The notes: generated by a model not told the origin, from the letters alone. A stretch of DNA of 64,000 bases from Coprothermobacterota bacterium (GCA_037446255.1 JBBIIY010000002.1:1353-65352); one strand, 5' to 3'; shown: positions 1,500 through 24,175, counted from the stretch's first letter. Numbers and translations are program-made.

Positions 1500-1799
1500 A
1501 TGGATTATACAAAACAGGTAAAGCAATTAGTGATAGAAAAAGGTGCTAATTTAATCGGAATTGCCGATTTAAAACATTTCTGGGGTAATTTACCAGTTAT
1601 CCCTGAAAACCTGCTGAATTCATTCAAATTTGGGGTATCTTTTGCAGTAAAATTTAACTATGAAATTATTGATCGTGTTAAAGATAAACCAACTCAGAAT
1701 ATACCAACCTCTTTCCCTCTGATTACAAAAAAAGTCAAATATATTATGGACGACTACACCCTCTTGACAAACTCTTTAAATCAGGTTAGTATAATCTGA
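1500..1799 (+). pseudogene. Truncated epoxyqueuosine-reductase-like (QueG/Fe-S) protein N-terminus
   Basis: GANLIGIADL...GVSFAVK...IIDRVKDKPT resembles the QueG-like N-terminus. There are no Fe-S cysteines and the ORF runs into the downstream promoter. Confidence 0.5.
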
Positions 1800-1810
1800 A
1801 TAGTGATTCA
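1764..1810 (+). promoter_or_regulatory. Sigma70 promoter with overlapping palindromic operator
   Basis: TTGACA (1764-1769), 17 nt, TAGTAT (1787-1792). The inverted repeat TGAAT-AGTG-ATTCA (1797-1810) covers the predicted start site. Confidence 0.65.
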
Positions 1811-1841
1811 TATATAATACCATAAAGGAGTATAAACCTAT

Positions 1842-2843
1842 ATGAAAAGAATTACTAAAATAATAAGCACAGGCTTAAAAGTTCCTGATAAAATCTTACC
1901 AAATCAGTATTTTAACGAATTCTTCAAGGAAGATGTTGGTACCTGGTTAGAGGGTATGGTAGGTCAAAAAGAAAGGCATGTCCTCGCAGAAAGTGAATCA
2001 GTTTCAGATTTGACTATTGAAGCAGCTTTAATGGCTTTAAATGAAGCCAAAGTTACTCCGGAAGATTTGGATTTGATTATTGTGTCTTCGGATACTCATG
2101 AATATATATCTCCTCCAACTTCTTTCGTAGTTCAGGGAAAGATAGGAGCGAAAAATGCTATGAATTTTGACTTGAACGCTTCCTGTGCTTCTTTTGTTAC
2201 CGCCCTTTCTACTGCTGATAGATGGTTAAAAACTGAGAAAAATGCTAAATACGCCTTAGTTATAGGTCAGTACGGCATGACTAAATATTTAGATTGGAAC
2301 GATAAATATACTGCCACCTTATTTGCTGATGGAGCAGGAGCATTCTTGTTAAAAACTGAAGAAACTGACGAGGAAACAGGGATATTGGATTCAGTTTTTA
2401 CCGCAGATGGTACTTACTTTGATTATATTGGAGTGTTTGGAGGTGGAACCAAGTATCCGTTAGACGAAGATACTATGAGTAAAGGTTTGAACAAATTAAG
2501 AATTCTTAAAAGATACCCTCCAGATATTAACTCTAAAAACTGGCCTATTCTTACCAGGAACCTTATGGAAAAAATTAACAAAAAACTTGATGATATAAAC
2601 ATGATATTTTTCACTCAGATTAATCTTACTACTATAAAAGAAGTTATGTTTAATCTAAATATTCCTCTGGAAAAGACTCACTGGGTTATGGATAAATACG
2701 GTTATACCGGTTCCGCATGTATTCCCATGGCAGTACACGATGCCAGAGTTCAGAGAAAACTAAATAAAGATGATTTAGTTATTCTGGTTGCTTCTGGGGC
2801 GGGTTATGCTATGGGTGCAATTGCATTAAAATGGAGTCTGTAA
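1842..2843 (+). CDS. FabH/KAS III-fold enzyme 1 with atypical active site (Cys-Thr-Tyr)
   Basis: DLNASCASF nucleophile loop, LFADGAGA; TQIN in place of HQAN; GYTGSACIP in place of GNTSAASIP. Confidence 0.85.
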   Translation: MKRITKIISTGLKVPDKILPNQYFNEFFKEDVGTWLEGMVGQKERHVLAESESVSDLTIEAALMALNEAKVTPEDLDLIIVSSDTHEYISPPTSFVVQGKIGAKNAMNFDLNASCASFVTALSTADRWLKTEKNAKYALVIGQYGMTKYLDWNDKYTATLFADGAGAFLLKTEETDEETGILDSVFTADGTYFDYIGVFGGGTKYPLDEDTMSKGLNKLRILKRYPPDINSKNWPILTRNLMEKINKKLDDINMIFFTQINLTTIKEVMFNLNIPLEKTHWVMDKYGYTGSACIPMAVHDARVQRKLNKDDLVILVASGAGYAMGAIALKWSL

Positions 2844-2857
2844 AGAGAGGAAAAATA

Positions 2858-3841
2858 ATGTTTTCTATAAAAATTAGCGGGACTGGAATTTATACTCCAT
2901 CTAAAATGATACCTACAAGCAGTATAAATGAGATGGTTGGCGAGGATATAACTCACTGGGCAATAGACAAGATGGGAATAGAGGTTAAAAAAATTTCCGA
3001 TCCAGAGGAAGCTGCTTCAGATCTGGCAGTTATAGCCAGTAGGCAAGCGTTGCAGAAAGCTGGATTAAATCCCACCGATTTGGATTTAGTAATTGTAGCA
3101 ACCGATACTCCTGACTACCTATCCCCTGCTACCTCTTCTGTATTGCAATGTAAATTGGGAGCGAAAAATGCAGGAACTTTCGATGTGAACTGTGCCTGTG
3201 CAGGTTTTGTAACTGCACTGGATACTGCAACTAAGTACCTGCTTACTGATAAATCATATAAAAGAGCTTTAGTAGTCGGTACCTATGCTATGACTAAATT
3301 CTTGAATTGGAAGGATAAAGTAACAGCACCAATTTTTTCTGATGGATCTGGTGCGGTAATTATAGAACAAACTGAGGAAGGCCCAGGTTATTTAGCTTCC
3401 AAAATAATTGCCGATGGTTGTTTTTACGATTACTTAGGCGTATATCTTGGTTCTGGGGCTGTCCCAACCCCTGAATACATAGAGAAAGGTCTTCACTTAG
3501 TCAGGTATAACAAGAGGTATCCTGATGTTAACACCGAAAACTGGCCAATATTAGTGAGAGATACACTAAAGAAAGCTGACCTGTATCCCGAAGATATAGA
3601 CATGATACTTTACACTCAGGTAAGGAAATATACCATAGAGGAAGTTATGAAATCTCTAAATTTGCCAATGGAGAAAACTTATATGGTTATGGGAAAGTAT
3701 GGCTATACAGGGTCTGCTTGCATACCTATGGCACTTAACGATGCCTTAGAGGATGGGAAGATTAATAAAGGAGATATCGTGGTTTTTTGCTCTTCCGGGG
3801 GTGGATATGCCATGGCTGCTTACGTAATGAAATGGGTTTAA
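2858..3841 (+). CDS. FabH/KAS III-fold enzyme 2 with atypical active site (Cys-Thr-Tyr)
   Basis: DVNCACAGF, FSDGSGA, TQVR, GYTGSACIP. The ATG at 2858 follows a GAGAGG RBS and is preferred over 2831. Confidence 0.85.
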   Translation: MFSIKISGTGIYTPSKMIPTSSINEMVGEDITHWAIDKMGIEVKKISDPEEAASDLAVIASRQALQKAGLNPTDLDLVIVATDTPDYLSPATSSVLQCKLGAKNAGTFDVNCACAGFVTALDTATKYLLTDKSYKRALVVGTYAMTKFLNWKDKVTAPIFSDGSGAVIIEQTEEGPGYLASKIIADGCFYDYLGVYLGSGAVPTPEYIEKGLHLVRYNKRYPDVNTENWPILVRDTLKKADLYPEDIDMILYTQVRKYTIEEVMKSLNLPMEKTYMVMGKYGYTGSACIPMALNDALEDGKINKGDIVVFCSSGGGYAMAAYVMKWV

Positions 3842-3856
3842 AAAAGGAGGTTATTT

Positions 3857-4621
3857 ATGCCCTATTTACCTTATAAAGAAGGAAATCTTTATTATGAAGA
3901 ACAAGGTTCGGGGAACAGGATTTTTATATTTGTTCATGGCAATATAGCCTCTCTTAAATATTGGATTAAATTAAGAGAGTTTTTACCAGAGGATTATAAA
4001 AGTTATTTCCTGGACTTGCCAGGATTTGGGCAGTCAGACAACATTCCACCTTATAATATAAACGCTTTTAGTGAAGCTATTTTATATTTCCTTGACACAA
4101 TGGATATTAACTCCTGTATATATGTAGGAAACTCTACTGGTGGTTTAATAGGTATGAATACCTGTCTTAAAACCAAAAAGATTGAAAAAATAATCCTTGT
4201 TTCTACAGTATCTGGAAAAGGTTATCCTTTAACTGATGATGCGCGTGCAGCCTTTAATCTATTAATGACCAACAGGGTATTTTTAGAGCAAATAATAAGA
4301 AATAATGTACTTCCACAATTTACGGATGAGATTATGATTCAGGAGTTTATTCAGGATGCTTTAAGAGCAATACCTCAAGGGTATATTGAGCTTCCAGAAA
4401 GTCTCGGTTCTACAAATATTATTGAAGATTTGAAGAAGGTTAATATTCCAGCTTTGTTCATTCATGGAGAGGAAGATAGGATTATTCCCCTATTTTGGAT
4501 ACAGGATACAGTTAGCGCTATCAGGGGTAAATTGTTGGTTATGAAGGGTCTGGGGCATACGCCACAACTGGTAGCTCCCCAGGAAGTAGCCCGTTTTATT
4601 ATAAATTTCGTAAAGAGGTAA
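3857..4621 (+). CDS. Alpha/beta hydrolase, Bacillus PhaZ (PHB depolymerase/3HB-oligomer hydrolase)-like
   Basis: VHGNIAS oxyanion motif, DLPGFGQS, GNSTGG nucleophile elbow, KIILVSTVSGKGYP, HGEED acid, GH catalytic His. Confidence 0.75.
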   Translation: MPYLPYKEGNLYYEEQGSGNRIFIFVHGNIASLKYWIKLREFLPEDYKSYFLDLPGFGQSDNIPPYNINAFSEAILYFLDTMDINSCIYVGNSTGGLIGMNTCLKTKKIEKIILVSTVSGKGYPLTDDARAAFNLLMTNRVFLEQIIRNNVLPQFTDEIMIQEFIQDALRAIPQGYIELPESLGSTNIIEDLKKVNIPALFIHGEEDRIIPLFWIQDTVSAIRGKLLVMKGLGHTPQLVAPQEVARFIINFVKR

Positions 4622-4625
4622 ATAA

Positions 4626-5369
4626 ATGAAAAAACTTGATGGAAAAGTATGCATCGTAACTGGCGGAGCCAGAGGTATTGGTAAAGAAATAAGTTGGTTA
4701 TTTGCCAAGAAAGGAGCTAGAGTAGTTATTTGGGACCTGGATGTTGAAAATCTTACTGATGTTAAAAAGGAGTTTGAAAATTATAATTTTGAAATATTAA
4801 CCCAGCAAGTGAATGTTACCGATAGGAATCAGGTAAAGACCGCTGTAGCAGAAGTAATAGAAAAATGGAACCAGATTGATGTTCTAATAAATAATGCCGG
4901 TATTACCAGAGATGGATATTTAACTAAAATGACCGAAGAGGACTTTGACCTGGTGATAAATGTAAATTTGAAAGGTGTCTTCAATTGTACCCAGTTGGTA
5001 CTTCCTCAAATGATTGCCCAGAATAGCGGAAGCATTATCTGTCTATCTTCTATAGTGGGCAGGGATGGAAATGTCGGGCAAACTAATTATGCTGCTTCCA
5101 AAGCAGGAGTTGTGGGTATGGTTAAAACCTGGGGAAAGGAACTGGCTCGCTTTAATATCAGGGTAAATGCTATAGCCCCAGGATATACCCTTACAGAAAT
5201 GGTACAGAAAGTCCCTGAAAAAATACTGGACATCATTAAAGAAAAGACTCCCCTGAAAAGGCTTGCTTCTACCGAGGATGTTGCTAAATTAGCTCTTTTC
5301 CTTGCTTCTGATGATTCTAATTTTATAACCGGACAGGTTATCAGCGTAGATGGAGGTTTAGTCCTTTAA
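4626..5369 (+). CDS. SDR family 3-oxoacyl reductase/acetoacetyl-CoA reductase (FabG/PhaB-like)
   Basis: TGGARGIG, NNAGITRD, GQTNYAASKAG; Asp at the end of beta2 (VIWD) suggests NAD(H). Confidence 0.9.
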   Translation: MKKLDGKVCIVTGGARGIGKEISWLFAKKGARVVIWDLDVENLTDVKKEFENYNFEILTQQVNVTDRNQVKTAVAEVIEKWNQIDVLINNAGITRDGYLTKMTEEDFDLVINVNLKGVFNCTQLVLPQMIAQNSGSIICLSSIVGRDGNVGQTNYAASKAGVVGMVKTWGKELARFNIRVNAIAPGYTLTEMVQKVPEKILDIIKEKTPLKRLASTEDVAKLALFLASDDSNFITGQVISVDGGLVL

Positions 5370-5387
5370 CCCCTCAAGGAATGCTTA

Positions 5388-6620
5388 ATGAACAGAATAG
5401 ACCCTAAAACCAGTAAAGGTATAAAAACCCGTGATAGTCTGATAGAAACAGCTACACACCTATTTTATAGTAATGGGTATTTCCAAACTTCCACTCATCA
5501 GATTGCTCAGGAAGCTGGAATGAGCACACCTTCTTTTTACCAGTATTTCTATAAAAAAGAGGACATTCTTTTTGAAATCATTACCACATTTGCCAGTGAG
5601 CTTTTTAGAAAATTAAAATTATCTCTTAATCCAGAAGATGGTTTGGAAATAAATATACGAAAGTTTTATACAGAATATCTATCCTATCTGAAGCTAAACA
5701 GAAAAAATTATAAAATATTCAGGGAAACTGAATTTGTCGGCTACCCGTATGTTAAACAGTACTATTTTGAATTGGGAGAAATACTAAAAAACCTATTAGG
5801 TAGTGATATTCCAGATTGGTTACCGGTTAACGAAATTATTAACAATTTAATCGGTTCTGTCTATTTTGTAGCCCTAAAAAAGATTGATTGGGAAGATTGC
5901 GAAGACATCAAATATCTCTCTGATGAATTAACCCAGTTTACCCTTAAAGGAATTAATAACAGGGCTGATTATAAACTTCGTCATAACATGCAAAAAACCT
6001 GGATGTTTTCAGATTTATCAAGTACACCCAAAAAATTATCTAAAAGTGAAGAAACCAAGCGAGGGCTATTGAGGGCAGCAGAAAAACTGATAGGGCAAAA
6101 TGGTTATGATAAAACTCACATTTCTGATATAACCCGTGAAGCAGGTGTAGGTCAGGGAACATTTTACCTTTATTTTCAATCTAAATTGGATATATTGAAA
6201 GCATTGGTTCAGGATATAAATAAAGGATTGAGGTTTGCTGTCTATCAATATATTGTAGGTTTATCCCATAGAAATGATATTGAGGTAGGTGCTTTATTAG
6301 CTTTTTCTGAATACATCAAAAACCACCGTAATGCTTATCGGGTGGTTAGAGAAGCAGAATTCGTTGATAGAGAAATCGGGAAATGGTATTACAATAGGAT
6401 TGCTGAACCCTACGCCATAGCCTTAAAAGAAGTAATGATTAAAGGGGAAATTAACTCACTTGACCCAGAATTATTAGGGCTAGCCATTATGGGTATGGGG
6501 CATGTTTTAGGGCTTATGTGGGTGGTCTGGAATGATAGTGATAATCCTTCTATCCCTGAAGAATCCTTGAGAAATACTTTGAAAATTATACTATTTGGAG
6601 TAAAAGGTGAAGAGAGTTAA
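5388..6620 (+). CDS. Tandem double TetR/AcrR-family transcriptional regulator
   Basis: Two TetR HTH units (IAQEAGMSTPSFYQYF and ITREAGVGQGTFYLYF), each followed by a similar ligand domain (RETEFV / REAEFV). Confidence 0.9.
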   Translation: MNRIDPKTSKGIKTRDSLIETATHLFYSNGYFQTSTHQIAQEAGMSTPSFYQYFYKKEDILFEIITTFASELFRKLKLSLNPEDGLEINIRKFYTEYLSYLKLNRKNYKIFRETEFVGYPYVKQYYFELGEILKNLLGSDIPDWLPVNEIINNLIGSVYFVALKKIDWEDCEDIKYLSDELTQFTLKGINNRADYKLRHNMQKTWMFSDLSSTPKKLSKSEETKRGLLRAAEKLIGQNGYDKTHISDITREAGVGQGTFYLYFQSKLDILKALVQDINKGLRFAVYQYIVGLSHRNDIEVGALLAFSEYIKNHRNAYRVVREAEFVDREIGKWYYNRIAEPYAIALKEVMIKGEINSLDPELLGLAIMGMGHVLGLMWVVWNDSDNPSIPEESLRNTLKIILFGVKGEES

Positions 6621-7890
6621 TTTTCAGGAATTATTGAATTATATTCCTTCAGAAGCCACAATTGTTACTGGAATGGTTGCAGGACAACCGGGATATTTTT
6701 TGAGCAATTTGCATAAAAAAGGTAATGCGAAAAAAATATCTGTATCCTTAGCTTTACCTTTAGAACCCTATAAATTCTTTATGAACCCGGAATATAAAAA
6801 CAAGTTCCTTTTAGAGTCCTGGTATCATGGTTCTTTTGCCCGAAAAAGCCAGTATCAGGGAACGGTAACTTTCATTCCCAACCAGTTAAACCGGGCGGGC
6901 CTGGACAGGCAGGAGATAAATCCACCGGATGTGATTGTTCTTACTTCTCCCCCACCGGATAGAAATGGTTTCTTTAACCTTTCTTTATCTATCACCTATG
7001 AGAAGTTTTTAGCTCTTAATAAGAAAGATGGTGCCTTGGTGGTTATGGAAGTCAATCCCAAGCTTCCGCGAGTTATGGGAGATACTTTCCTTCACCAGAG
7101 TTATGTTGATTATTATTACGAAGTTGATACTCCCTTGTTTACTTTAGGAGAACAAAAACCTCAGGAAGAGGAACAGAAAATTGGGGAATTAATATCCAAA
7201 TTGGTTGAAGACGGTTCTACTATACAACTCGGTATAGGCGGAATTCCTAATGCTGTTGCTTATTTGTTGGAAGACAAAAACGACCTGGGTGTCCATACCG
7301 AAATGATAACTGAAAGTATGCAATATCTTTATAAAAAGGGGGTGATAAATGGAAAGAAAAAAACTTTTTATCCCGCAACTATGGTAGGGACTTTCATTTA
7401 TGGTTCTGATGAATTGTATAGATTTGTAAATGAAAACCCTGTGATTAACCTTTTACCCGGGCATATAACCAATGATCCTCATTATATAGGGCAGCAGTAC
7501 AAGATGGTTTCAATAAATACCGCTTTAATGGTTGATTTGACCGGTCAAGTGTGTTCGGAAAGCATTGGAATTGAACAAATTTCTGGAACAGGTGGTCAGG
7601 TTAATTTTCATACTGGAGCTCAACATTCAAAAAATGGGAAAGGTATTTTAGCCCTGAGATCAACCGCTAAAGATGGTAGTATCTCAACCATAGTTCCCGG
7701 CTTGCCTCAAGGCTCAACTGTTACTTTATCGCGTAATGATGTTGACTACATTGTAACTGAGTTTGGTGTTGCCAGGTTGAAAGGGAAAAGCATAAAAGAT
7801 AGAGTTGAAATCTTAATTTCGGTTGCACACCCGAAATTTAGAGAATACCTCCGTGAGGAGGCAAAAAGAATTAAAATTTATAATTGGTAA
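6607..7890 (+). CDS. Acetyl-CoA hydrolase/transferase family (4-hydroxybutyrate CoA-transferase-like)
   Basis: QLGIGGIPNAV, catalytic HTEM, GTGGQ, IVTEFGVA, AHPKFR. Confidence 0.9.
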   Translation: MKRVNFQELLNYIPSEATIVTGMVAGQPGYFLSNLHKKGNAKKISVSLALPLEPYKFFMNPEYKNKFLLESWYHGSFARKSQYQGTVTFIPNQLNRAGLDRQEINPPDVIVLTSPPPDRNGFFNLSLSITYEKFLALNKKDGALVVMEVNPKLPRVMGDTFLHQSYVDYYYEVDTPLFTLGEQKPQEEEQKIGELISKLVEDGSTIQLGIGGIPNAVAYLLEDKNDLGVHTEMITESMQYLYKKGVINGKKKTFYPATMVGTFIYGSDELYRFVNENPVINLLPGHITNDPHYIGQQYKMVSINTALMVDLTGQVCSESIGIEQISGTGGQVNFHTGAQHSKNGKGILALRSTAKDGSISTIVPGLPQGSTVTLSRNDVDYIVTEFGVARLKGKSIKDRVEILISVAHPKFREYLREEAKRIKIYNW

Positions 7891-7903
7891 GGAGGAGTGT
7901 GAA

Positions 7904-9472
7904 ATGAAAAAATTTGTTAGTGTGCTTTTAGTATTATCGTTACTGGCGTGGTGTCTTCCAGCATCAATTGCTCAAACAACTGCAACTGATGGTTCTTTGT
8001 TAGTGTTACAGGTTGGTTCAAAATCATACCTGAAAAATGGAGCTCACTTAACTATGGATGTGGAACCTGAAATAGTTAAAGGCAGAACATTTGTTCCTAT
8101 CAGATTCGTAAGCGAAGCGTTGGGGGCTGGGGTTAATTGGAATGAAACCACTAAAACAGTGACCATTACTTCGGGATTAACAGTTATTGTTTTAAAAATC
8201 GGCAGCGTAGAAGCTACTGTCAGAGATAAGAAACTTGTTTTAGAAGCAGCTCCTTATATCAAAGCTGGTAGGACAATGACTCCTATTAGATTGGTCAGTG
8301 AAGGCTTGGGAATGTTTGTTCATTGGGGAAGCCAGGCCAGACAAGTATTTATCAGAGAGAAACCAAGTGTTAGTGTTCCAGGAGTCAGTGCAGATGAAAT
8401 TAAAATAGGAAGTTTTATTGCTCTGACAGGATTTTTAGCCTTTGTGGGTGTACCTTTTTATCAGGGAATGCAGTCATATTTCAACATGGTTAATGATGCA
8501 GGCGGAGTGTATGGTAAAAAGATTAAATTAATAGTTGAAGATGACCGGTTTGATCCAGCCAGAACAGTAACAGGAGTTAAGAAGTTAGTAGAAGAGGATA
8601 AAGTATTAGCTATAGTAGGTGGTCTTGGTACCCCAGGATGTCTGGCAGTAATGGATTACCTGAACAAAGGGAAAGTTCCCTTCGTTTATCAGGGTTCTGG
8701 TGTTTCTATTTTATCTGTTCCACCCCAAAGATACGTCTTTTCAGTACAACCCAACTATTTCAACGAAGGGCAAATCTTTGTCCAGCACATTGTGAATAAT
8801 ATGAAACTTAAAAGAATTGCAGTAATGTATCAGGATGATGATGCTGGAAGAGAAGGCTTATTTGGTGTTAGAACTGGCATTAAGAGGTTTGGTGGAAGTA
8901 TATCTTTGGAAATACCTTTCCCTGGAACTGAAACAGACTTTACTCCTTATTTATTAAGAGTAAAAGCAAGTGGTGCAGATGCTTTAATAGTATATTCTTT
9001 AAGCGTGGGTGTTGGTGCTACGGTAGTAAAAGCTACTAAATCTCTGGGAATTACCCAAAGTGTATTTTTACCTTACCCCCATTCGGGGATTATTGGAGCA
9101 GCTGGAGATGCTGCTGAGAATGTATATGTTACAGGTTGGGTAGATTTTTCTGACCCCCAAGAACCAGGAGTAAAAAAATTCTGGGATATCTGGCTCAAAT
9201 ACTTCCCCAAAGGAGACCCTCTATCTTTTTCATATGCAGTCGCTGGTTATGCTGCTGGAGAAGTATTTGTGGAAGCACTGATGAGATTAGGACCGAATCC
9301 TTCCAGAGAAGCACTGGTATGGGCTTTAGAATCTTATAGGAATTGGAATGGTGACTTAGTAAAAGATTTAAGTTATGGTACTAAAGAAAGATCTGGTAAG
9401 TATTCAATGTTCTTTATGCAAGTTATCAATAAAGAACTGAAGAAAGTTAGCGGTTGGGTGTCTGTTTTATAA
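7904..9472 (+). CDS. ABC substrate-binding protein (LivJ-type) fused to an N-terminal copper-amine-oxidase-like (stalk) domain
   Basis: ATG 7904 follows AAGGAGG. Signal peptide, then GRTFVPIRFVSEALG and GRTMTPIRLVSEGLG repeats, then PGVSADEIKIG...GGVYGKKIKLIVEDD. Confidence 0.88.
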   Translation: MKKFVSVLLVLSLLAWCLPASIAQTTATDGSLLVLQVGSKSYLKNGAHLTMDVEPEIVKGRTFVPIRFVSEALGAGVNWNETTKTVTITSGLTVIVLKIGSVEATVRDKKLVLEAAPYIKAGRTMTPIRLVSEGLGMFVHWGSQARQVFIREKPSVSVPGVSADEIKIGSFIALTGFLAFVGVPFYQGMQSYFNMVNDAGGVYGKKIKLIVEDDRFDPARTVTGVKKLVEEDKVLAIVGGLGTPGCLAVMDYLNKGKVPFVYQGSGVSILSVPPQRYVFSVQPNYFNEGQIFVQHIVNNMKLKRIAVMYQDDDAGREGLFGVRTGIKRFGGSISLEIPFPGTETDFTPYLLRVKASGADALIVYSLSVGVGATVVKATKSLGITQSVFLPYPHSGIIGAAGDAAENVYVTGWVDFSDPQEPGVKKFWDIWLKYFPKGDPLSFSYAVAGYAAGEVFVEALMRLGPNPSREALVWALESYRNWNGDLVKDLSYGTKERSGKYSMFFMQVINKELKKVSGWVSVL

Positions 9473-9495
9473 AGCATAGAACTTAAACGAAATAC

Positions 9496-9524
9496 TGGCA
9501 GGGGGAATTTTCTTCCCCCTGCCA
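9496..9524 (+). other. Strong intergenic hairpin (likely mRNA stabiliser) after the SBP gene
   Basis: TGGCAGGGGGAA-TTTTC-TTCCCCCTGCCA is a perfect 12-bp stem with no U-tract on the sense strand. Confidence 0.7.
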
Positions 9525-9543
9525 AAAACTATTTATAAAAGGT

Positions 9544-10293
9544 GTGAAGGTGATATTAAAGGTAAAAGATTTAACAGTAAAGTTCGGCGGACTCATAGCA
9601 GTAAATAAACTATCCTTTGATGTTAATCCCTATACGATCCATGGACTGATAGGTCCTAATGGAGCAGGTAAAACAACTGTATTTAACAGTATTTTTAAGT
9701 TAGTACCCTACCATGGAAATTTAATATATAAAAATATAGATATTGGAAGATACCCTACCTACTCTTTAGTTAATTTGGGTATATCCAGAACATTTCAAAA
9801 TTTAAGCATTTTTTATTCTATGACAGTAAAAGAAAATATTCTCGTGGGTCTTCATAGTAAAAAAAGTAGTAATCTTTTTAAAGACTCGTTGGGTTTTACC
9901 ATAAACTCAGAAAAAGAATTATTGGAAGTGTCTGAATTATTGAATATACTTCCCTTTTTGAATATATATGCAATGTTTCTTCCTTATGGAGTGCTCAAAA
10001 TGGTAGAACTTGCACGAGCCTTGATAAGTAAACCTCAGTTACTTCTTCTTGATGAACCTGGAGCAGGATTAAATCCCTCAGAAAAAGAAAGATTAAAAGA
10101 GATAATCAAACGAATTAAAGAAATGGGAACATCTGTTCTAATGGTGGAACACGATATGGGAATTATTATGGATATTTCTGATGAAATAACTGTTATGAAT
10201 TTTGGTGAAAAAATCTCTACTGGCACTCCAGAAATGGTAAGTCATGACCAGAAAGTTATAGAGGCTTACTTAGGGGAGGAAATCCATGCTTAA
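9544..10293 (+). CDS. Branched-chain amino acid-type ABC transporter ATPase (LivG-like)
   Basis: GPNGAGKTT, RTFQN, LPYG, LLLDEP, VIEAYLG. Confidence 0.92.
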   Translation: MKVILKVKDLTVKFGGLIAVNKLSFDVNPYTIHGLIGPNGAGKTTVFNSIFKLVPYHGNLIYKNIDIGRYPTYSLVNLGISRTFQNLSIFYSMTVKENILVGLHSKKSSNLFKDSLGFTINSEKELLEVSELLNILPFLNIYAMFLPYGVLKMVELARALISKPQLLLLDEPGAGLNPSEKERLKEIIKRIKEMGTSVLMVEHDMGIIMDISDEITVMNFGEKISTGTPEMVSHDQKVIEAYLGEEIHA

Positions 10294-10987
10294 AATAGAA
10301 GGGCTGGTATCAGGTTACGGACACTTAGAAATCCTCCACAGTATTAATTTATCTGTGGAAAAAGGAGAAATTGTGTCAGTCCTGGGTTCAAACGGTGCAG
10401 GAAAGTCAACCCTCCTGAGGACTATCTCAGGTATTTTAAAACCCTGGAAAGGAACAATTACCTTTGAAGGAAGATTATTAAACAATCTTGACCCCATACA
10501 AATCGTAAAACATGGCGTAGTGCATGTGCCAGAAGGTAGACATATCTTTCCGGGTTTAACGGTAAAAGAAAATTTATTGCTTGCTGGATATAAACTTAGG
10601 AATATTGAATTATCTGAAAGATATAATTTCGTGTACACCATGTTTCCAGTGTTGAAAGAAAGGGAAAAACAGTTAGGTGGTACTTTAAGCGGAGGAGAAC
10701 AGCAAATGTTAGCATTAGCCAGAGGAATAATGCCCAAGCCAAGTCTTTTATTGCTGGATGAACCTTCATTAGGACTGGCTCCTAAACTGGTTACTTTAAT
10801 ATTTAAAGCTCTGAAGAGATTTAGAGACGAGGGGTTGACAATTTTACTAGTTGAGCAAAACGCTAAAAGAGCTTTGGAAATTTCCAATCGTGCCTATATT
10901 CTGGCTACTGGATATCTTGCCTTAGAAGGCAATTCCAGTGATTTAATTGCAGACCAGAATGTAAAACGACTATACCTGGGGAGGTAA
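10286..10987 (+). CDS. ABC transporter ATPase (LivF-like)
   Basis: GSNGAGKST, VPEGR, LSGGEQQM, LDEPSLGLAP. Confidence 0.92.
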   Translation: MLKIEGLVSGYGHLEILHSINLSVEKGEIVSVLGSNGAGKSTLLRTISGILKPWKGTITFEGRLLNNLDPIQIVKHGVVHVPEGRHIFPGLTVKENLLLAGYKLRNIELSERYNFVYTMFPVLKEREKQLGGTLSGGEQQMLALARGIMPKPSLLLLDEPSLGLAPKLVTLIFKALKRFRDEGLTILLVEQNAKRALEISNRAYILATGYLALEGNSSDLIADQNVKRLYLGR

Positions 10988-10992
10988 AGAAT

Positions 10993-11862
10993 ATGTTTGA
11001 AATTTATCTCAACTTAATAGCCCGAGGTTTATCAACTGGAGCTATATATGGTCTGACAGCCATGGGTATCGTCCTGATATTCCAGACTAATAATATCTTA
11101 AACTGGTCACAGGGAAATGCAGGTATGCTAATAACTTACCTTGCCTTCTTTCTTCTCACTTTACAACTTCCCTACCCTTTAGTAATTCTTCTGGCAGTTA
11201 TTGCTGGAGCTACCCTGGGAGGGACGATAGAAAAGTACCTCATAAGACCTGTAAGAGAAAAATCGCGCATTGGGTTACTCATGATAACTTTAGGTTTGGC
11301 AATGGTTTTTGAAGGATTAGCTGCGTTTATATTTAGACCCTTCCCCCGTAATTTCGACCCTCTTCTCAAAGGTTCGGTAACCTTTGGACCAATAACGCTC
11401 GGACAGCAGGATTTTTTGGTCATAGCACTTTCTACTTTTATTTTTACAACTCTTTTCTTAATTTTGTACCGAACTAAAATAGGTATAGGTGCCAGGGGTA
11501 TTGCAGAAGATTGGTATGGAGCTAGGATTCTGGGAGTGCCTGTTTTTGCCATATACCTTTTTATCTGGTCCATAAGCTTTGCTCTCTCCGGGTTAGTAGG
11601 CATCTTAGTTGTACCCAGGTTTGCCCTTGAGCCTCATTTTATGTTGCCTATCCAGGTAAAAGCTTTTTCTGCTGCTGTGCTTGGAGGTATGAATTCTGTA
11701 TTAGGTGCTATCATTGGTGGGCTGCTTTTAGGTGTTATGGAAAATATTATTGCTTTTCATTTCCCTTTTTTAAAAGAAAGTTTTTCACTTATTTTAGTAG
11801 TAATAGTACTACTTTTTCTTCCAACTGGTCTTTTGGGTAGAAAAACCCAGAGGAGGTTTTAA
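10993..11862 (+). CDS. ABC transporter permease (LivH-like)
   Basis: GAIYGLTAMG, KAFSAAVLGG, PTGLLG; hydrophobic throughout. Confidence 0.9.
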   Translation: MFEIYLNLIARGLSTGAIYGLTAMGIVLIFQTNNILNWSQGNAGMLITYLAFFLLTLQLPYPLVILLAVIAGATLGGTIEKYLIRPVREKSRIGLLMITLGLAMVFEGLAAFIFRPFPRNFDPLLKGSVTFGPITLGQQDFLVIALSTFIFTTLFLILYRTKIGIGARGIAEDWYGARILGVPVFAIYLFIWSISFALSGLVGILVVPRFALEPHFMLPIQVKAFSAAVLGGMNSVLGAIIGGLLLGVMENIIAFHFPFLKESFSLILVVIVLLFLPTGLLGRKTQRRF

Positions 11863-12803
11863 TGAAAAAGTCAATAATAATTTCTATTTTTATACTGCTT
11901 TTATCTTTGGCTATGCCATTTATTTTTGCTGAAAAACCTTCTCAGATAGCCTATTTAAATATAATAATGATTTATGCAATATCTGCTCAAGGGTTAAACC
12001 TCCTGCTGGGTTATGCAGGCCAGGTATCACTTGGTCATGCTGCTTTTATGGCTATTGGCGGTTATACTTCGGCAATTCTGGTTATGCAATTTGGGTTTAA
12101 TAATATATTTTCAATCATCTGTGCAATTCTATTAACCGGTTTTTGCGGTCTTTTTGTAGGGTTCCCTTCCTTAAGATTGTCTGGGTTCTATTTAGCAATT
12201 GCTACTATGGCATTAGGTACTGCAACCGCTGATATTATTAAACGATTGGTTATTACGGGAGGAGATCAAGGCTTAAGGAATATTCCACCAATAAATATTT
12301 TTGGTTACGAATTTCAATCAGAAATACAAAAATACTATTTATTTTTGTTTATCTTAATAATAGTGTTCATACTGGTAAAAAATCTTGTTAACAGCAGAAG
12401 CGGTAGAGCACTAAGAGCTATTCGTGATGCCGAGCTTACAGCTGAGACTATGGGGATAAACATCGCCTACTATAAAGTTGTAGCCTTTGTTGCATCATCT
12501 ATGATTGCTGGGTTAAGCGGAGTTTTATATGCACATTCTATATCTTATCTACATCCGGTTAATTTCGGTCTTAGTTTTTCTATTGAACTATTAGCTATTA
12601 CTATTGTTGGAGGATTAGCTACAATTTGGGGACCTCTCCTGGGTGCCTTATTCTGGGTATTATTACCAAGATTAATCGGAGTAAGGATGGAGTTTTTAGC
12701 TACTACTTTATTCGGGATAATGGTAATTTTATCAATCAGATTTTTCCCCAGAGGGCTAAGCGAGATAATTTTCAAGTTGGAAAAAAAGCTGAAACTATCT
12801 TAA
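11862..12803 (+). CDS. ABC transporter permease (LivM-like)
   Basis: GLNLLLGYAGQVSLGHAAF, RLSGFYLAIAT, GRALRAIRD. Confidence 0.9.
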   Translation: MKKSIIISIFILLLSLAMPFIFAEKPSQIAYLNIIMIYAISAQGLNLLLGYAGQVSLGHAAFMAIGGYTSAILVMQFGFNNIFSIICAILLTGFCGLFVGFPSLRLSGFYLAIATMALGTATADIIKRLVITGGDQGLRNIPPINIFGYEFQSEIQKYYLFLFILIIVFILVKNLVNSRSGRALRAIRDAELTAETMGINIAYYKVVAFVASSMIAGLSGVLYAHSISYLHPVNFGLSFSIELLAITIVGGLATIWGPLLGALFWVLLPRLIGVRMEFLATTLFGIMVILSIRFFPRGLSEIIFKLEKKLKLS

Positions 12804-12822: not shown

Positions 12823-13839
12823 TCAGCAGATTCGGGGTAAAAGCTCTCCAGCTGGTATATTAATGACTCTTTTCGCTCCATAAATAGTTTTCATCATAAC
12901 TAAACCTGGATGGTGGTCAGTAACCCTGCCAATGATACTGGCATCTACACCTAACTCATTTTTCTTCATTTCAGTTAATATTTTTTCAGCGTTCTCTTCT
13001 GAAACAAAAGTTATGAATTTTCCCTCATTCGCCAGATAAAGCGGTTCAAGGCCCAACATTTCACAGGCATTAATAACTGCACTTTTTATGGGAATTGAAT
13101 CTTCAAATATTTCAATACCTACGTTTGAGGCTAAGGCAACTTCATTAAGGGAAGTCCCTAAACCTCCTCTGGTAGGATCTTTTAAAACATGGATATCAGA
13201 AGATATTTTGAATATTGATTCAATAATCATATTTAACGGAGCGCAGTCACTTTGTATTAATGAAGAAAACTTCATCCCATCTCTCTGGCTGAGGATAGCT
13301 ATCCCGTGGTCCCCTATCGTTCCGTTTATTAGTATCAAGTCCCCTATTTTAGCGTTGGTGGTAGACACAAATCTACCTTCGGGAATAATTCCAATACCCG
13401 AGCTGTTGATAAATATTTTATCAGCAGCTCCCTTTTCAACTACCTTAGTATCACCGGTAATAATTTTTACACTGGCTTTTTGGGAATATTGAAACATTGA
13501 CTTAACAATATTTTCCAAATCATTTATTAAAAACCCCTCTTCAATGATAAAACCTACACTTAGATAAAGCGGTAGGGCTCCTCTCATAGATAGATCATTA
13601 ATTGTTCCGCAAACAGCCAATTTGCCTATATCGCCACCTGGAAAAAAAATAGGTTTAACCACATAACTATCAGTGGAAAAGCATAATTTACCAGCTGGTA
13701 AATCGGGAATAGTGCTGGCATCTTCATTATTTAGTAGCTGGGGTTCAGTAAAATATTTCAGGAAAATATCTTTTATAAGACTATGACTGAGTCTTCCCCC
13801 ACTTCCATGAGCTAATAGAATCCTATCTTGATTATTCAT
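12823..13839 (-). CDS. hypE: Hydrogenase maturation protein HypE
   Basis: LAHGSGG, DSYVVKP, DPTRGG, C-terminal PRIC. Start corrected to ATG 13839. Confidence 0.96.
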   Translation of the reverse strand: MNNQDRILLAHGSGGRLSHSLIKDIFLKYFTEPQLLNNEDASTIPDLPAGKLCFSTDSYVVKPIFFPGGDIGKLAVCGTINDLSMRGALPLYLSVGFIIEEGFLINDLENIVKSMFQYSQKASVKIITGDTKVVEKGAADKIFINSSGIGIIPEGRFVSTTNAKIGDLILINGTIGDHGIAILSQRDGMKFSSLIQSDCAPLNMIIESIFKISSDIHVLKDPTRGGLGTSLNEVALASNVGIEIFEDSIPIKSAVINACEMLGLEPLYLANEGKFITFVSEENAEKILTEMKKNELGVDASIIGRVTDHHPGLVMMKTIYGAKRVINIPAGELLPRIC

Positions 13840-14926
13840 AAGAGTAAAGATAATAAGCAGAGCATGCGCCTTCAGAAGAAACCATACATGCACCCAAAGG
13901 ATTATCTGGGGTGCATATATTTTTGAAGTAGCGACATTCTGGCGGTTCAATTAAACCCCGAATAACTTCGTGACACTGACAACCATCAGAGTTGAATACT
14001 TCAGACTCTGGAATTATGATATCAAATTGGTGCCTTACATCAAATTCCTTGTATGAACTCTTAATACTTAAACCACTATTTGGAATTGAACCTAAACCAC
14101 GCCAGTTAGCTACATCTTCGTAAAAAATTTCATGCATGGTGCTAATTGCCCGAGTATTGCCTTCGGGTTTTACACTTCTGGAATAAGTATTGATAACCTG
14201 GGGTTTATTATCAATACATTGTCTAATCAGGCTTTCTAAACCCTTCAAAATGTCAATCGCTTCAAAACCTGATATAGCAAAAGGCATATTATACAAAGAG
14301 GGCAGAAATTCCCAGGCTAAAGAACCAATGATAGTGCTAACATGTCCGGGTCCAAGTATTCCATCAAGACTGATTTCACCAAGGTTTAGAATAGCTTTAG
14401 TTGCTGGTGGAGTTAACTTGTGCATGGAAAAAACATAATAATTAGAGATATTCTCATTAATTGCTTTTAAAATAGACGCAGCGACCAATGGTGCAGTAGT
14501 TTCAAAACCAATACCAAGAAAAATCACTTTTTTCATTTTATTCTGTTGAGCAATAAGTATAGCATCTAGAGGTGAATATACTATTCTAATATCAGCTCCC
14601 TGTGCTCTTGCTTTTTGGAGGCTTATACCATCTTTTCCGGGGACCTTCAAAAAATCTCCAAATGTAGTAACAATTACTCCTGGTAAATATGAAAGTGATA
14701 TGGAGTAATCAATCTCTCTCTGGTCGGTAACACATACCGGACATCCAGGTCCTGAAAGCATTTTAATGTTTTTAGGAAGCAATTTTCTTATACCGTGTTT
14801 AAAAATTGCTTGAGTGTGCGTACCGCAGAATTCCATAAAAGTTAAGGGTTGGACCGATAAATCAAACATATTTTTAATTATAGACTTGAATAGTGAAGGG
14901 TCTTTGTATTTAGCTATTAAATTCAT
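13832..14926 (-). CDS. hypD: Hydrogenase maturation protein HypD
   Basis: MEFCGTH, GPGCPVC, GFETT, PGHVS, CMVSSEGAC. Confidence 0.97.
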   Translation of the reverse strand: MNLIAKYKDPSLFKSIIKNMFDLSVQPLTFMEFCGTHTQAIFKHGIRKLLPKNIKMLSGPGCPVCVTDQREIDYSISLSYLPGVIVTTFGDFLKVPGKDGISLQKARAQGADIRIVYSPLDAILIAQQNKMKKVIFLGIGFETTAPLVAASILKAINENISNYYVFSMHKLTPPATKAILNLGEISLDGILGPGHVSTIIGSLAWEFLPSLYNMPFAISGFEAIDILKGLESLIRQCIDNKPQVINTYSRSVKPEGNTRAISTMHEIFYEDVANWRGLGSIPNSGLSIKSSYKEFDVRHQFDIIIPESEVFNSDGCQCHEVIRGLIEPPECRYFKNICTPDNPLGACMVSSEGACSAYYLYSYE

Positions 14927-14932
14927 TATTTT

Positions 14933-15142
14933 TTACTCCAGTTTGTCAAGCAAAGAAATTGTTTCCAGGGCTTCTTCTTCAGTCATCAAACTGATGGCAT
15001 AACCCGCATGGACAATTACATAATCTTCTACCTTAGCCTCAGGGGTAAAAAGAAGACTGATTGTTCTGTATAGATCACCAAAGTCTACCATGGCTTCTTC
15101 TCCTGAAATGGAGACTATTTTAGCAGGAACTGCTACGCACAT
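14933..15142 (-). CDS. hypC: Hydrogenase chaperone HypC
   Basis: MCVAVPAK, VIVHAGYA. Confidence 0.96.
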   Translation of the reverse strand: MCVAVPAKIVSISGEEAMVDFGDLYRTISLLFTPEAKVEDYVIVHAGYAISLMTEEEALETISLLDKLE

Positions 15143-17423: not shown

Positions 17424-18037
17424 TCCTGCAGTCCTTCACCTGTTTTGCAGGAGGTTCTAATAATAGGTGCTCTGATATTTACTGCTCTAATACCTTTTTC
17501 AAAATATTCATAGTTATAATCATTTGGATTAATCAGGTCAATTTTATTTAATAGAATAACATCCGCTACAGAAAATATTTTTGGATATTTATATGGTTTA
17601 TCATCGCCTTCAGGAACGCTAGAGATAATTATTTTATAGTTTTCTCCTAAATCATAAGGTGCTGGACATACCAGGTTACCAACATTTTCAATAAAAAGAA
17701 GCTTATAAGTATGGTCTTTAACTTCAGAGAGTATGTTTTTAATCATAGAAGCTGTAAGATGACAGCTTCCACCTGTGTTTATTTGCAGCGCATCAAATCC
17801 GTTTTCTTTTATTTTTTGAGTGTCAATAGAAGAAGCGATATCGCCTTCTATGACTAATACTTGATGTTTAATTAATTTAAGAGCACCCAGAATAAGACTG
17901 GTTTTTCCCGCTCCAGGAGAAGCCATAATATTAAAAGCTGTTATTCGCCATGCTGCTAAAAACTGCCTTACTTCCTGGGCATTTAAATTATTCTTAGATA
18001 AAATGTCTTTATTAAGTTTAATTTGCATCGGTTTCAT
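17390..18037 (-). CDS. hypB: Hydrogenase nickel incorporation GTPase HypB
   Basis: SPGAGKT, IEGD, CHL, ENVGNLVCP, EGDDKP, NKID. Confidence 0.96.
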   Translation of the reverse strand: MKPMQIKLNKDILSKNNLNAQEVRQFLAAWRITAFNIMASPGAGKTSLILGALKLIKHQVLVIEGDIASSIDTQKIKENGFDALQINTGGSCHLTASMIKNILSEVKDHTYKLLFIENVGNLVCPAPYDLGENYKIIISSVPEGDDKPYKYPKIFSVADVILLNKIDLINPNDYNYEYFEKGIRAVNIRAPIIRTSCKTGEGLQEWVNWLYHNLN

Positions 18038-18362
18038 CGATTAATTCTATGCTTTCTATCTCTAATTCTCTACCTGCTCCATATTCAGTAATAGTTTTGC
18101 CGCAAAAAGGGCATATCCAATCATCAGTTTTAAAATAAACCCCACATTTATCACATAATAGTGAAGCCTCAATAATTTCGTAATGTATTTTGGCTCCCTC
18201 CAGGCTACTATTTTGAGAAATATTATCTAAATAGAAAAGTAATGATTCTGGTGAAACACTGGAAAACTCACCTATTCGCAGGTTCAATTGTTTGATTTTT
18301 TTTCCAGTTGACTCTCTATGGCAAATTTCTATTATTTCCCTGGCTAAGGAAAGCTCATGCAT
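18018..18362 (-). CDS. hypA: Hydrogenase nickel chaperone HypA
   Basis: MHELSLA, two CxxC motifs, GRELEI. Confidence 0.95.
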   Translation of the reverse strand: MHELSLAREIIEICHRESTGKKIKQLNLRIGEFSSVSPESLLFYLDNISQNSSLEGAKIHYEIIEASLLCDKCGVYFKTDDWICPFCGKTITEYGAGRELEIESIELIDETDAN

Positions 18363-18365
18363 AAT

Positions 18366-18842
18366 TTAACCGGTCCAGTTCTCTACCAGGTAAGTTATTT
18401 TTTCTGTTGCTTGTTTAGTCAGTATTTGAGTCATAGGGCTTAATCCTTCTCCTAAGTCAAAATCATATCCCTTAATGGACATAATATACCCTTTGGCAGA
18501 AGAACCGTATAGCTGTTTAGCAAGAGTCAATATGGTAGAAGGGCTAAGGGTATGAGAAAAACCAGGTCCTCTTCCTTCCTGGCTTATCTCCTTCAAAAAG
18601 ATATCCGAGACATCATCTTCAACTGAAGAATCAACAAAAATAACCAGCTTATAGGCACTGACAGTTTCTATCAGCTCTAAACCGAGCTCCTGTTGTATTA
18701 TAAAATCTGCAGGGAGATTACCAGGGAGAGACTCAACAGCTATAATACCTGCTCCATCATCTCTCCTGGCTGTATTCCCATATCCAATTATTAAACAGTA
18801 GTTCTTTTTGTTTGGTATATTTTCTATGTTATTATCTGTCAG
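18366..18842 (-). CDS. [NiFe]-hydrogenase maturation endopeptidase (HoxW-like); non-canonical start
   Basis: The frame extends 82 codons upstream of the ORF-track start and contains IGYGNTARRDDGAG, VIFVD and SH. No ATG/GTG/TTG precedes these motifs; CTG at 18842 is the likely start. Confidence 0.85.
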   Translation of the reverse strand: MTDNNIENIPNKKNYCLIIGYGNTARRDDGAGIIAVESLPGNLPADFIIQQELGLELIETVSAYKLVIFVDSSVEDDVSDIFLKEISQEGRGPGFSHTLSPSTILTLAKQLYGSSAKGYIMSIKGYDFDLGEGLSPMTQILTKQATEKITYLVENWTG

Positions 18843-18849
18843 AACCCTT

Positions 18850-20277: not shown

Positions 20278-20286
20278 AGGTTCCTC

Positions 20287-20832: not shown

Positions 20833-20843
20833 TTTATCCTCCT

Positions 20844-22550: not shown

Positions 22551-22552
22551 TT

Positions 22553-24172: not shown

Positions 24173-24175
24173 CTT

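Follow-up and report, generated by a model that had tools for sequence, protein, structure and literature searches.

The stretch of DNA analysed here (64,000 nucleotides, called the window below) belongs to a Coprothermobacterota bacterium (GCA_037446255.1, JBBIIY010000002.1:1353-65352) with a genome of 1.15 Mb in 19 contigs, 95.9% complete. Between positions 1842 and 12803, on contig C2 of this genome, eleven plus-strand genes form a single tightly packed operon according to the open reading frame (ORF) listing (Table 1). They encode two FabH-like proteins (KASa and KASb, from ketoacyl-acyl carrier protein synthase, KAS), an alpha/beta-hydrolase, a short chain dehydrogenase/reductase (SDR), a TetR-type regulator, a CoA-transferase and a Liv-type importer with its substrate-binding protein (SBP). 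Pfam, NCBIfam and the ORFs agree in this with the gene inventory of a preliminary description of the same DNA. The closest named homologues of the operon proteins are those of Caldisericia/Caldisericota. The intergenic spacing is -13 to +15 nt, except that 71 nt separate livG from the SBP gene, therefore the operon has no room for an acyl carrier protein (ACP) gene. None of its proteins was recognised by Pfam or NCBIfam as ACP, FabD, FabF or FabZ, as the preliminary description had stated; a complete-looking type II fatty acid synthesis (FAS II) cluster is located on contig C14, comprising FabF, FabD, AccB, a second FabG, an NMO/FabK-like protein and a canonical FabH with both the HQAN and the GNTS motif. 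The expectation that automated annotation would return fabH and fabG also holds: the SDR passes a FabG equivalog cut-off, the database names of the KAS homologues are uniformly "ketoacyl-ACP synthase III", and the ESM Atlas clusters give generic "KAS III" only.

Table 1 Features of the operon and its upstream region in the window.
Feature	Position	Strand	Assignment and basis
Promoter-like element	1764..1795	+	TTGACA-17 nt-TAGTAT with overlapping TATAAT; promoter scan
Ribosome-binding site	1826-1831	+	AAGGAG, ahead of the KASa gene
KASa	1842..2843	+	FabH-fold, Cys-Thr-Tyr family, "N-type" (C..TQxN..Y..C); ACP_syn_III and ACP_syn_III_C
KASb	2831..3841	+	FabH-fold, Cys-Thr-Tyr family, "R-type" (C..TQxR..Y..C); ACP_syn_III and ACP_syn_III_C
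Alpha/beta-hydrolase	3857..4621	+	Cytoplasmic, predicted esterase; Abhydrolase_1/6; nearest to B. thuringiensis PhaZ, shorter cap
SDR	4626..5369	+	FabG-like, NAD-type Asp37; adh_short
Tandem TetR regulator	5388..6620	+	410 aa, two TetR_N; Pfam
CoA-transferase	6607..7890	+	4-hydroxybutyrate / butyryl-CoA:acetate family; AcetylCoA_hydro, AcetylCoA_hyd_C
SBP	7904..9472	+	Secreted: signal peptide, two Cu_amine_oxidN1 repeats, Peripla_BP_6; ORF open from TTG 7823
Hairpin	9495..9525	.	GC-rich, 13-bp stem, in the 71-nt SBP-livG spacer
LivG-type ABC ATPase	9544..10293	+	Pfam, NCBIfam
LivF-type ABC ATPase	10286..10987	+	ORF listing; 58-68% identical counterparts in the same position in G003 and G004
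LivH-type permease	10993..11862	+	BPD_transp_2
LivM-type permease	11862..12803	+	BPD_transp_2

KASa and KASb pass the cut-offs of both ACP_syn_III and ACP_syn_III_C (81-91 bits versus 24-26.6), however, they stay under those of the FabH families NF006829 (222.4 and 241.9 bits, respectively; cut-off 249) and TIGR00747 (194.9 and 223.6 bits; cut-off 292.1). Their likeness to FabH (PDB codes: 2ebd, 1hn9) extends to fold, length, the active-site Cys and the Gly-rich C-terminal loop, with E values of 1e-46 to 1e-54. Alignment to 2ebd and other FabHs showed that the Cys is kept in both proteins, while the His of "HQAN" (His244) is replaced by Thr and the Asn of "GNTS" (Asn274) by Tyr. Neither protein carries the Cys-His-Asn catalytic triad of FabH, and the term non-canonical KAS III used in the preliminary description is appropriate. 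Thiolase_N scores 19.7 bits with KASa, under its cut-off of 26.4, and gives no match with KASb at E <= 0.001. Homologues of KASb in the databases are 327-329 aa long and span 97% of the ORF, the true start of which is probably the ATG at 2858. Since the His/Asn pair is missing, KASa and KASb, to judge from their sequences, cannot carry out the decarboxylative condensation of malonyl groups and are not condensing enzymes.

A pattern scan with one genome per species found at least 568 relatives among 600 matched stretches, and the best 80 loci were examined; with the window and the loci of three relatives these provide 91 family rows. The signature C..T-Q-x-[N/R/S]..Y..C is present in all 91 (78 CTQNYC, 12 CTQRYC and one CTQSYC), and a second, nearly invariant Cys stands five residues past the Tyr ("GYTGSAC"). 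The canonical FabHs of this genome and its relatives have C..H-Q-N..N..[S/T] in 7/7. A quick maximum-likelihood tree, with support from the Shimodaira-Hasegawa-like approximate likelihood ratio test (SH-aLRT), places the 91 Cys-Thr-Tyr rows on one side of a branch (SH-aLRT 94) and has the FabH group supported at 99. KASa belongs to a clade of seven rows found in Caldisericota only (SH-aLRT 100), and KASb to an "R-type" clade of 12 rows (SH-aLRT 91), which includes the single KAS of G004, G008 and L021 as well as two Elusimicrobia sequences; the R-type KAS gene adjoins an SDR gene in 12/12. KASa and KASb are old paralogues and not the product of a recent duplication, because they fall in separate clades of the tree. 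Among the best 80 of the at least 568 loci, the family was found in Caldisericota, Acidobacteriota, Chloroflexota, Myxococcota, Elusimicrobiota and Thorarchaeota/Promethearchaeota, with 12 rows from Thorarchaeota.

The neighbouring genes were counted by tblastn of 31 query proteins against 83 loci and the window; 74 of the loci are non-Caldisericota. Unlike FabH, the Cys-Thr-Tyr genes never stand beside fab genes in these 84 layouts; their neighbours are instead a ligase or CoA-transferase, esterases and transporters. An AMP-binding acyl-CoA ligase is found in 71 of the 74 loci (directly after the KAS gene in 60) and an alpha/beta hydrolase in 62 (directly before the KAS gene in 52), followed by MaoC dehydratase (37), TonB-type outer-membrane barrel and TetR (35 each), MFS transporter (25), Peripla_BP_6 SBP and LivM-type permease (13 each), Lipase_2 (9), SDR (8), PhaC-type protein (5) and SCP-x-type thiolase (2). 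At least one uptake component (TonB-type outer-membrane protein, MFS, SBP or LivM) occurs in 55/74 loci. The ligases beside the family match fatty-acid CoA ligases best. The usual gene order is TetR, outer-membrane protein, alpha/beta hydrolase, KAS, ligase, alpha/beta hydrolase, MaoC, MFS in Acidobacteriota and LivGFHM, alpha/beta hydrolase, KAS, ligase, alpha/beta hydrolase, SBP in Thorarchaeota. In Caldisericota the CoA-transferase takes the place of the ligase; KAS, alpha/beta hydrolase, SDR, double TetR, CoA-transferase, SBP and LivM are all present in 6/6 full-length loci (window, G003, G004, G008, L021 and L024). This recurrence of importer, esterase, CoA-transferase, NAD-type FabG-like SDR and TetR across Caldisericota upholds the view taken in the preliminary description, namely, that the operon is catabolic and does not serve fatty acid synthesis.

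Some of the loci in other phyla have further components. PhaC of the class III type stands beside the KAS-ligase pair in L029, L041, L050, L067 and L093 (Blastocatellia and relatives), with up to two copies per locus; MaoC is present in four of these five loci, and Pfam-less proteins of 110-154 aa, which could be phasin-like, in three. The PhaC-type proteins have a Cys lipase box GYC[MI]G in 6/8 cases, one has GYSMG and one is without such a box; one of them passes the class III PhaC family TIGR01836 (368 versus 365.3 bits). P0132 (624 aa) is an in-frame fusion of an alpha/beta hydrolase and a Cys-Thr-Tyr KAS with both signature motifs intact. No weight is given to P0133 (684 aa), in which the N-terminal part of a KAS is joined to an AMP-binding ligase, as it is without the GYTGSAC region and may have arisen by truncation or through an error in gene calling. 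Four Thorarchaeota loci (L052:2129-3157, L054, L064 and L089, minus strand) encode a second, very divergent KAS III-like protein of about 28% identity, which shows C-[I/L]-R-K-H-D in the alignment columns of the family signature; its gene is divergent from the main cluster and has its own ligase in 4/4 loci and MaoC in two (L052 and L054). Parts of the Caldisericota operon recur in another phylum in L082 (Anaerolineales), where a CoA-transferase (48% identical) and an SBP (33%) are found beside an alpha/beta hydrolase, KAS, ligase, SCP-x thiolase and second ligase.

The best NCBIfam match of the alpha/beta-hydrolase is NF050089, the Bacillus-type intracellular short-chain-length polyhydroxyalkanoate (scl-PHA) depolymerase, albeit with 120.2 bits versus a cut-off of 300. 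PhaZ of B. thuringiensis (PDB codes: 8ynv, 8ynw) is the best sequence match among solved structures. The motif likeness to Bacillus intracellular PhaZ claimed in the preliminary description (HGNxxS, GxSxGG and KxILVxxVxxKGYP, the last shared in the form K(I/L)ILVxxVxxKGYP) stands at the level of the motifs, HGNIAS, GNSTGG and KIILVSTVSGKGYP aligning with ihgnmts, gwsmgg and klilvesvgmkgyp of 8ynv, while the whole protein remains under the NF050089 cut-off. The strong part of the alignment covers residues 10-126 (58 bits), and the C-terminal part scores 7.5 bits. The Ser-Asp-His triad (S93, D207 and H234) is invariant in 12 homologues, and its Asp and His also align to 8ynv. Foldseek of the AlphaFold 2 model (mean per-residue confidence, pLDDT, 93.6) ranks 8ynv_C second (E 9.7e-21, TM-score (TM) 0.89), level with aryl esterases; the fold search does not separate PhaZ from aryl esterases, KAI2/D14 and haloperoxidases. 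The hydrolase differs from PhaZ in its length (254 aa versus 311) and its shorter cap; the identity in Foldseek is 21% and the target-normalised TM 0.76. NF050089 is also the best family for the KAS-adjacent esterases of G004 (368 aa, 104 bits) and Chloroflexota (375 aa, 119 bits), where the runner-up scores about 68 bits, and it leads the next family by 35-50 bits in the window, G004 and Chloroflexota esterases.

The SDR is close to the limit of the FabG families, as it passes NF004198 marginally (297.8 versus 296 bits) and stays just under TIGR01830 (297.4 versus 297.75). The Asp that closes beta2 in 4nbu, 4nbt and 2et6 has its aligned counterpart in Asp37 of the SDR ("VVIWDLD"), in line with the NAD-type Asp noted in the preliminary description. 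These NADH-dependent FabGs (4NBU and 4NBT) and the yeast MFE-2 (3R)-hydroxyacyl-CoA dehydrogenase (2et6) are the top solved relatives of the SDR, with E values of 3.6e-75, 3.9e-71 and 7.2e-71, respectively. Both FabGs, 4NBU and 4NBT, are given as NAD-bound in PMC5264612. With its NAD-type Asp37, and with a second FabG-like gene in the C14 FAS II cluster, the SDR does not look like a housekeeping FabG with a preference for NADPH. We propose that it is an NAD-dependent (R)-3-hydroxyacyl-CoA dehydrogenase.

The CoA-transferase (AcetylCoA_hydro 206.7 and AcetylCoA_hyd_C 31 bits) belongs to a type of enzyme that acts on C2-C4 acids, which we take to be family I of the Heider classification. Its best PDB match is the 4-hydroxybutyrate CoA-transferase 3eh7 (E 6.3e-96), and it has the two-domain family in common with 3eh7 and 3gk7; from butyryl-CoA:acetate CoA-transferase it differs by a score far under the TIGR03948 equivalog cut-off (251 versus 674.8 bits). 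The best sub-threshold NCBIfam matches of the tandem TetR protein are the regulators FasR and Bacillus FadR, and a double TetR is present in 10/10 Caldisericota loci.

The LivH/LivM pair of the operon is the only one found in the genome. The SBP scores 56.8 bits with the LIV-binding subfamily NF011933, the cut-off of which is 477. In LivJ, Tyr150, Tyr202 and Glu226 hold the alpha-amino and alpha-carboxylate groups of the ligand; these residues, the identities of which were checked on the E. coli sequence, correspond in a low-identity alignment to Ala, Ser and Tyr in the window SBP, and to Ala, Ser/Asn and Tyr across five Caldisericota SBPs. By this score and these substitutions the SBP does not look like a binder of branched-chain amino acids. 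Neither ketol-acid reductoisomerase (KARI, ilvC) nor BrnQ was found in the 95.9% complete genome, and the organism is probably a branched-chain amino-acid auxotroph dependent on peptides or on the transporter of the operon.

According to the preliminary description, the FabH-like pair stands in for a thiolase, and the cluster should be anti-correlated with a clustered thiolase. The comparison supports neither claim. True thiolase genes directly follow the CoA-transferase gene in the same operon in G004, G008 and L021, and their products are 52-53% identical to the thiolase of the window genome; in L024 (Cryosericum) the operon encodes an SCP-x-type thiolase-domain protein that passes NF005704 (420 versus 412 bits). 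A thiolase-type gene is included in 4/6 full-length Caldisericota loci, and in G003 and the window genome it lies elsewhere. In the latter it is part of an atoD-like, atoA-like, thiolase operon on contig C1 (115973-118486, L109:4974-7487, minus strand), followed by MarR and MATE genes. The C1 thiolase scores 482 bits with TIGR01930 (cut-off 240.55), 313 with Thiolase_N and 163 with Thiolase_C, and the ScoB/AtoA-like gene beside it 277 bits versus 243.55; we read this operon as giving the small genome a further, canonical way of turning acetoacetate into acetyl-CoA. Among five relatives from the phylum, a small sample of related genomes, thiolase was found in 2/2 with the KAS cluster (G003 and G004) and in 0/3 without it (G005, G006 and G007, 91-96% complete), so that thiolase goes with the cluster, the opposite of the predicted anti-correlation. 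A thiolase role for KASa and KASb is unlikely, because thiolase co-occurs with the cluster and the two proteins have lost the His and Asn. That a real thiolase belongs to the pathway is the main correction to the earlier finding, and it follows that the FabH-like proteins need another job.

We propose, with about an even chance of being right, that the operon is TetR-controlled and serves the uptake and catabolism of a small (R)-3-hydroxy acid, its ester or its oligomer, 3-hydroxybutyrate (3HB) and its oligomers being the leading candidates. The tethered SBP and the LivGFHM-type ABC system would import the substrate, and the cytoplasmic esterase resembling B. thuringiensis PhaZ would open its ester bonds. 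The CoA thioester would be formed by the 4-hydroxybutyrate-family CoA-transferase with acetyl-CoA as donor, and the (R)-3-hydroxyacyl-CoA would be oxidised to 3-oxoacyl-CoA by the NAD-type FabG-like SDR. A genuine thiolase, encoded on C1 beside the atoDA-like genes in this genome and within the operon in relatives, would then generate acetyl-CoA, the conversion of which to acetate would yield ATP, with the NADH reoxidised to H2 by the neighbouring NAD-linked [NiFe] hydrogenase. Each of these steps we infer from homology and gene context. Of the steps put forward in the preliminary description, the uptake, the activation with CoA, the NAD-linked oxidation and the final cleavage to acetyl-CoA fit the comparative evidence; the use of the FabH pair as thiolase does not. 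A PHA/3-hydroxy-acid theme accompanies the family in other phyla as well, in the form of PhaZ-like esterases, MaoC and class III PhaC; the FabG/PhaB-like SDR, MaoC (PhaJ-like) and class III PhaC families act on (R)-3-hydroxyacyl thioesters. Crotonase, MaoC and class III PhaC were looked for in the window genome and none was found, and acetate kinase is present; for these reasons a single round of oxidation and thiolysis, applied to a C4-type substrate from outside, fits the organism.

The proposed route parallels the canonical utilisation of polyhydroxybutyrate (PHB) and ketone bodies (PhaZ, 3HB dehydrogenase, SCOT or acetoacetyl-CoA synthetase, PhaA/AtoB) in leading to acetyl-CoA by an esterase, an NAD-linked SDR, a CoA-transferase and a thiolase, and the genome has an atoDA-like pair and a thiolase in addition. 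It differs in that the SDR is FabG/PhaB-like (297.8 bits) and not BdhA-like (214.7 bits versus a cut-off of 258), which suggests that oxidation takes place at the level of the CoA ester, and in that the CoA-transferase is a single-chain enzyme of the 4-hydroxybutyrate type. The operon also adds an SBP-dependent importer, a double TetR and two FabH-like proteins, and no PhaC was found in the genome.

As for the task of the FabH-like proteins, KASa and KASb would probably take the acyl group of the CoA-activated substrate onto the Cys, as an acyl-S-Cys intermediate, and hand it on, in coupling with the esterase. The KAS III-like acyltransferases of natural-product pathways, of the CerJ and ChlB3/ChlB6 type, have the FabH fold and use the Cys for acyl transfer without condensation, which is the kind of chemistry proposed here; however, they are absent from the PDB matches of KASa and KASb at E <= 1e-10, and their context is a biosynthetic cluster, whereas that of KASa and KASb is catabolic. 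A more specific idea, which we regard as quite doubtful, is that the Cys-Thr-Tyr family represents a novel type of enzyme within the thiolase superfamily, which cleaves oxo-ester, not C-C, bonds in a CoA-activated oligo-(R)-3-hydroxyalkanoate. One carboxyl end of the imported oligomer would be activated by the neighbouring ligase or CoA-transferase, the Cys would attack the adjacent ester, the Tyr/Thr would protonate the leaving 3-hydroxyl and CoA would resolve the acyl-enzyme. Acting alongside the esterase, to which it is sometimes fused, such an enzyme would convert an oligomer to 3-hydroxyacyl-CoA units for the price of one activation; if true, anaerobes, Acidobacteriota and Asgard archaea would have an energy-saving way of living on polyester debris.

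Several observations weigh against the proposal of a 3-hydroxy-acid operon. The hydrolase scores 120 bits where the depolymerase family asks for 300, is about 57 residues short and has a fold equally near to aryl esterases; hydrolases of the window type have four close relatives, confined to a few Caldisericia, and the KAS-adjacent esterases of Acidobacteriota, Thorarchaeota and L021 look PcaD-like; lineages may differ in the ester or lactone on which they act. The SDR, in passing the FabG equivalog cut-off, leaves an ACP substrate possible, and the PhaC, MaoC and ligase of the Blastocatellia loci could be anabolic (fatty acid to PHA) and not devoted to PHA breakdown. Since the Liv-type importer is the sole one found and KARI and BrnQ were not found, it may be needed for branched-chain amino acids, and the alignment of the SBP to LivJ is one of low identity. 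The best 80 of the at least 568 loci are dominated by closely related Pyrinomonadaceae, thus the neighbour counts are not independent. Finally, the role assigned to the KAS proteins is one that we only infer.

An unlikely but still sensible alternative keeps the logic of the pathway and changes the substrate to an enol-lactone or pyrone, a beta-keto or dioxo acid, 4-hydroxybutyrate or another short hydroxy-acid ester. Most KAS-adjacent esterases beyond the window lineage match the 3-oxoadipate enol-lactonase PcaD best (sub-threshold, 100-143 bits), the best solved relatives of the CoA-transferase act on 4-hydroxybutyrate, the window esterase is level in fold with aryl esterases and an esterase degrading acyl-homoserine lactones, and the esterase, CoA-transferase and thiolase mirror the PcaD/PcaIJ/PcaF pathway. 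However, the window, G004 and Chloroflexota esterases match the scl-PHA depolymerase best by a clear margin, MaoC, the FabG-like SDR and PhaC point to (R)-3-hydroxyacyl thioesters, and Pfam and NCBIfam revealed no ring-cleavage or lactone-forming enzymes in the cluster. Readings of the phloroglucinol/triacetate, cyclohexanecarboxylate and PhlACB type were dropped, as their signature enzymes are absent from the cluster by the same two databases. The retro-Claisen cleavage of acetoacetyl-CoA by the FabH-fold pair in place of a thiolase, within the pathway as proposed, is decidedly unlikely. The thiolase-superfamily fold, the nucleophilic Cys, the second Cys of "GYTGSAC", which could in principle be a base, the constant adjacency of the R-type KAS to the SDR that would make 3-oxoacyl-CoA and the lack of a thiolase in the window operon itself would suit it. 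It conflicts with the thiolases in the operons of G004, G008, L021 and L024 and beside the atoDA-like genes in the window genome, with the presence of thiolase tracking the cluster, with the replacement of the enolate-stabilising His and Asn and the sub-threshold Thiolase_N score of KASa, and with the other phyla, where the family is paired with an acyl-CoA ligase in 71/74 loci and with an SDR in just 8/74.

FabH His/Asn mutants retain the transacylation half-reaction, and a Cys-only KAS might move CoA-activated short or hydroxy fatty acids from an import system to ACP for lipid synthesis, the FabG-like SDR acting on the ACP thioester. The conserved Cys, the FabG equivalog score and the nearly constant pairing with an acid-activating enzyme agree with such scavenging, which is nevertheless improbable: the family is common in Thorarchaeota and, to our knowledge, archaea are generally without ACP; the thiolase, CoA-transferase and esterases of the same operons are catabolic; C14 already provides the cell with a full FabH and FabG; and the SDR carries the NAD-type Asp. 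That the transporter is a plain branched-chain amino-acid importer and the upstream enzymes are functionally unrelated neighbours is very improbable, even though its ATPases and permeases are Liv-like and the genome offers no second LivH/LivM pair, KARI or BrnQ that was found. Its linkage to KAS, SDR, CoA-transferase and TetR survives changes of gene order across Caldisericota, the KAS genes of Thorarchaeota and Chloroflexota likewise have Liv-type importers beside them, with SBPs that differ (13/74 loci), and the window SBP is far under the LIV-binding cut-off and without equivalents of Glu226 and Tyr202. We find it scarcely credible that the operon is a biosynthetic Ole/Lst-like set, in which a condensing pair, a hydrolase, an SDR and acid activation make a beta-keto acid, beta-lactone, ketone or olefin. 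The composition of OleA/B/C/D and LstA/B/C/D is parallel, including two KAS paralogues, and OleA structures (3row, 3s21 and others) are weak, partial PDB matches (E 1e-11 to 1e-18). On the other hand, the cluster comes with importers (SBP-dependent ABC, TonB-type outer-membrane protein) and with thiolase or CoA-transferase, the ligases match fatty-acid CoA ligases best and the window operon has no AMP-binding gene; the KAS proteins are far nearer to FabH than to OleA, and OleA keeps the His and Asn that they have lost.

The logic of the 3-hydroxy-acid pathway is a variant of known PHB/ketone-body utilisation, and the FabH-like family, which is part of the thiolase superfamily, is uncharacterised; no description of the Cys-Thr-Tyr KAS variant or of the operon was found in the literature at the level of titles and abstracts. 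The name "ketoacyl-ACP synthase III" is attached to thousands of database proteins that appear to be another enzyme; they have no His/Asn pair and never occur with fab genes in the examined loci. In at least six phyla, Asgard archaea among them, the family is accompanied by uptake systems, esterases and an enzyme that activates acids. Its reaction, once found, would provide both a new thiolase-superfamily activity and the remedy for a systematic error of annotation. Should the substrate derive from PHA, the operon would be a genetic marker of anaerobic polyester and bioplastic turnover in subsurface and sediment communities, and it would account for a 1.15 Mb fermenter living on bacterial polyesters and bioplastics.

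The operon of G003 is preceded, like that of the window, by a TTGACA/TATAAT pair; taken together, the promoter and terminator scan gave no more sites than chance would (32 versus 39.2 expected from shuffled sequence). Directly downstream of the -10 element a TGA(A/T)TCA heptamer is found as GTGATTCA in the window (1803-1812) and, just past the -10, as GTGAATCA in the G003 operon (L015:6583-6592); the double TetR might use this heptamer as the core of its operator. A scan of the window found no inverted repeat upstream of KASa, and an Rfam scan of the whole window gave no match. The hairpin ahead of livG may tune the ratio of the binding protein to the membrane components. Upstream of the operon are a methyladenine glycosylase gene and, immediately 5' of the promoter, an ORF of 99 aa (1500-1799) with no Pfam hit, neither of which is kept beside the G003 operon. 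Downstream, on the minus strand (12823-27707), hypE, hypD, hypF and hypB-like genes are followed by the gene set of a soluble NAD-linked [NiFe] hydrogenase, consisting of a large subunit, an Oxidored_q6 small subunit and NuoG-, NuoF- and NuoE-like subunits. The same region encodes a 1025-aa NuoF-like protein fused to a pyridine-nucleotide-disulphide oxidoreductase.

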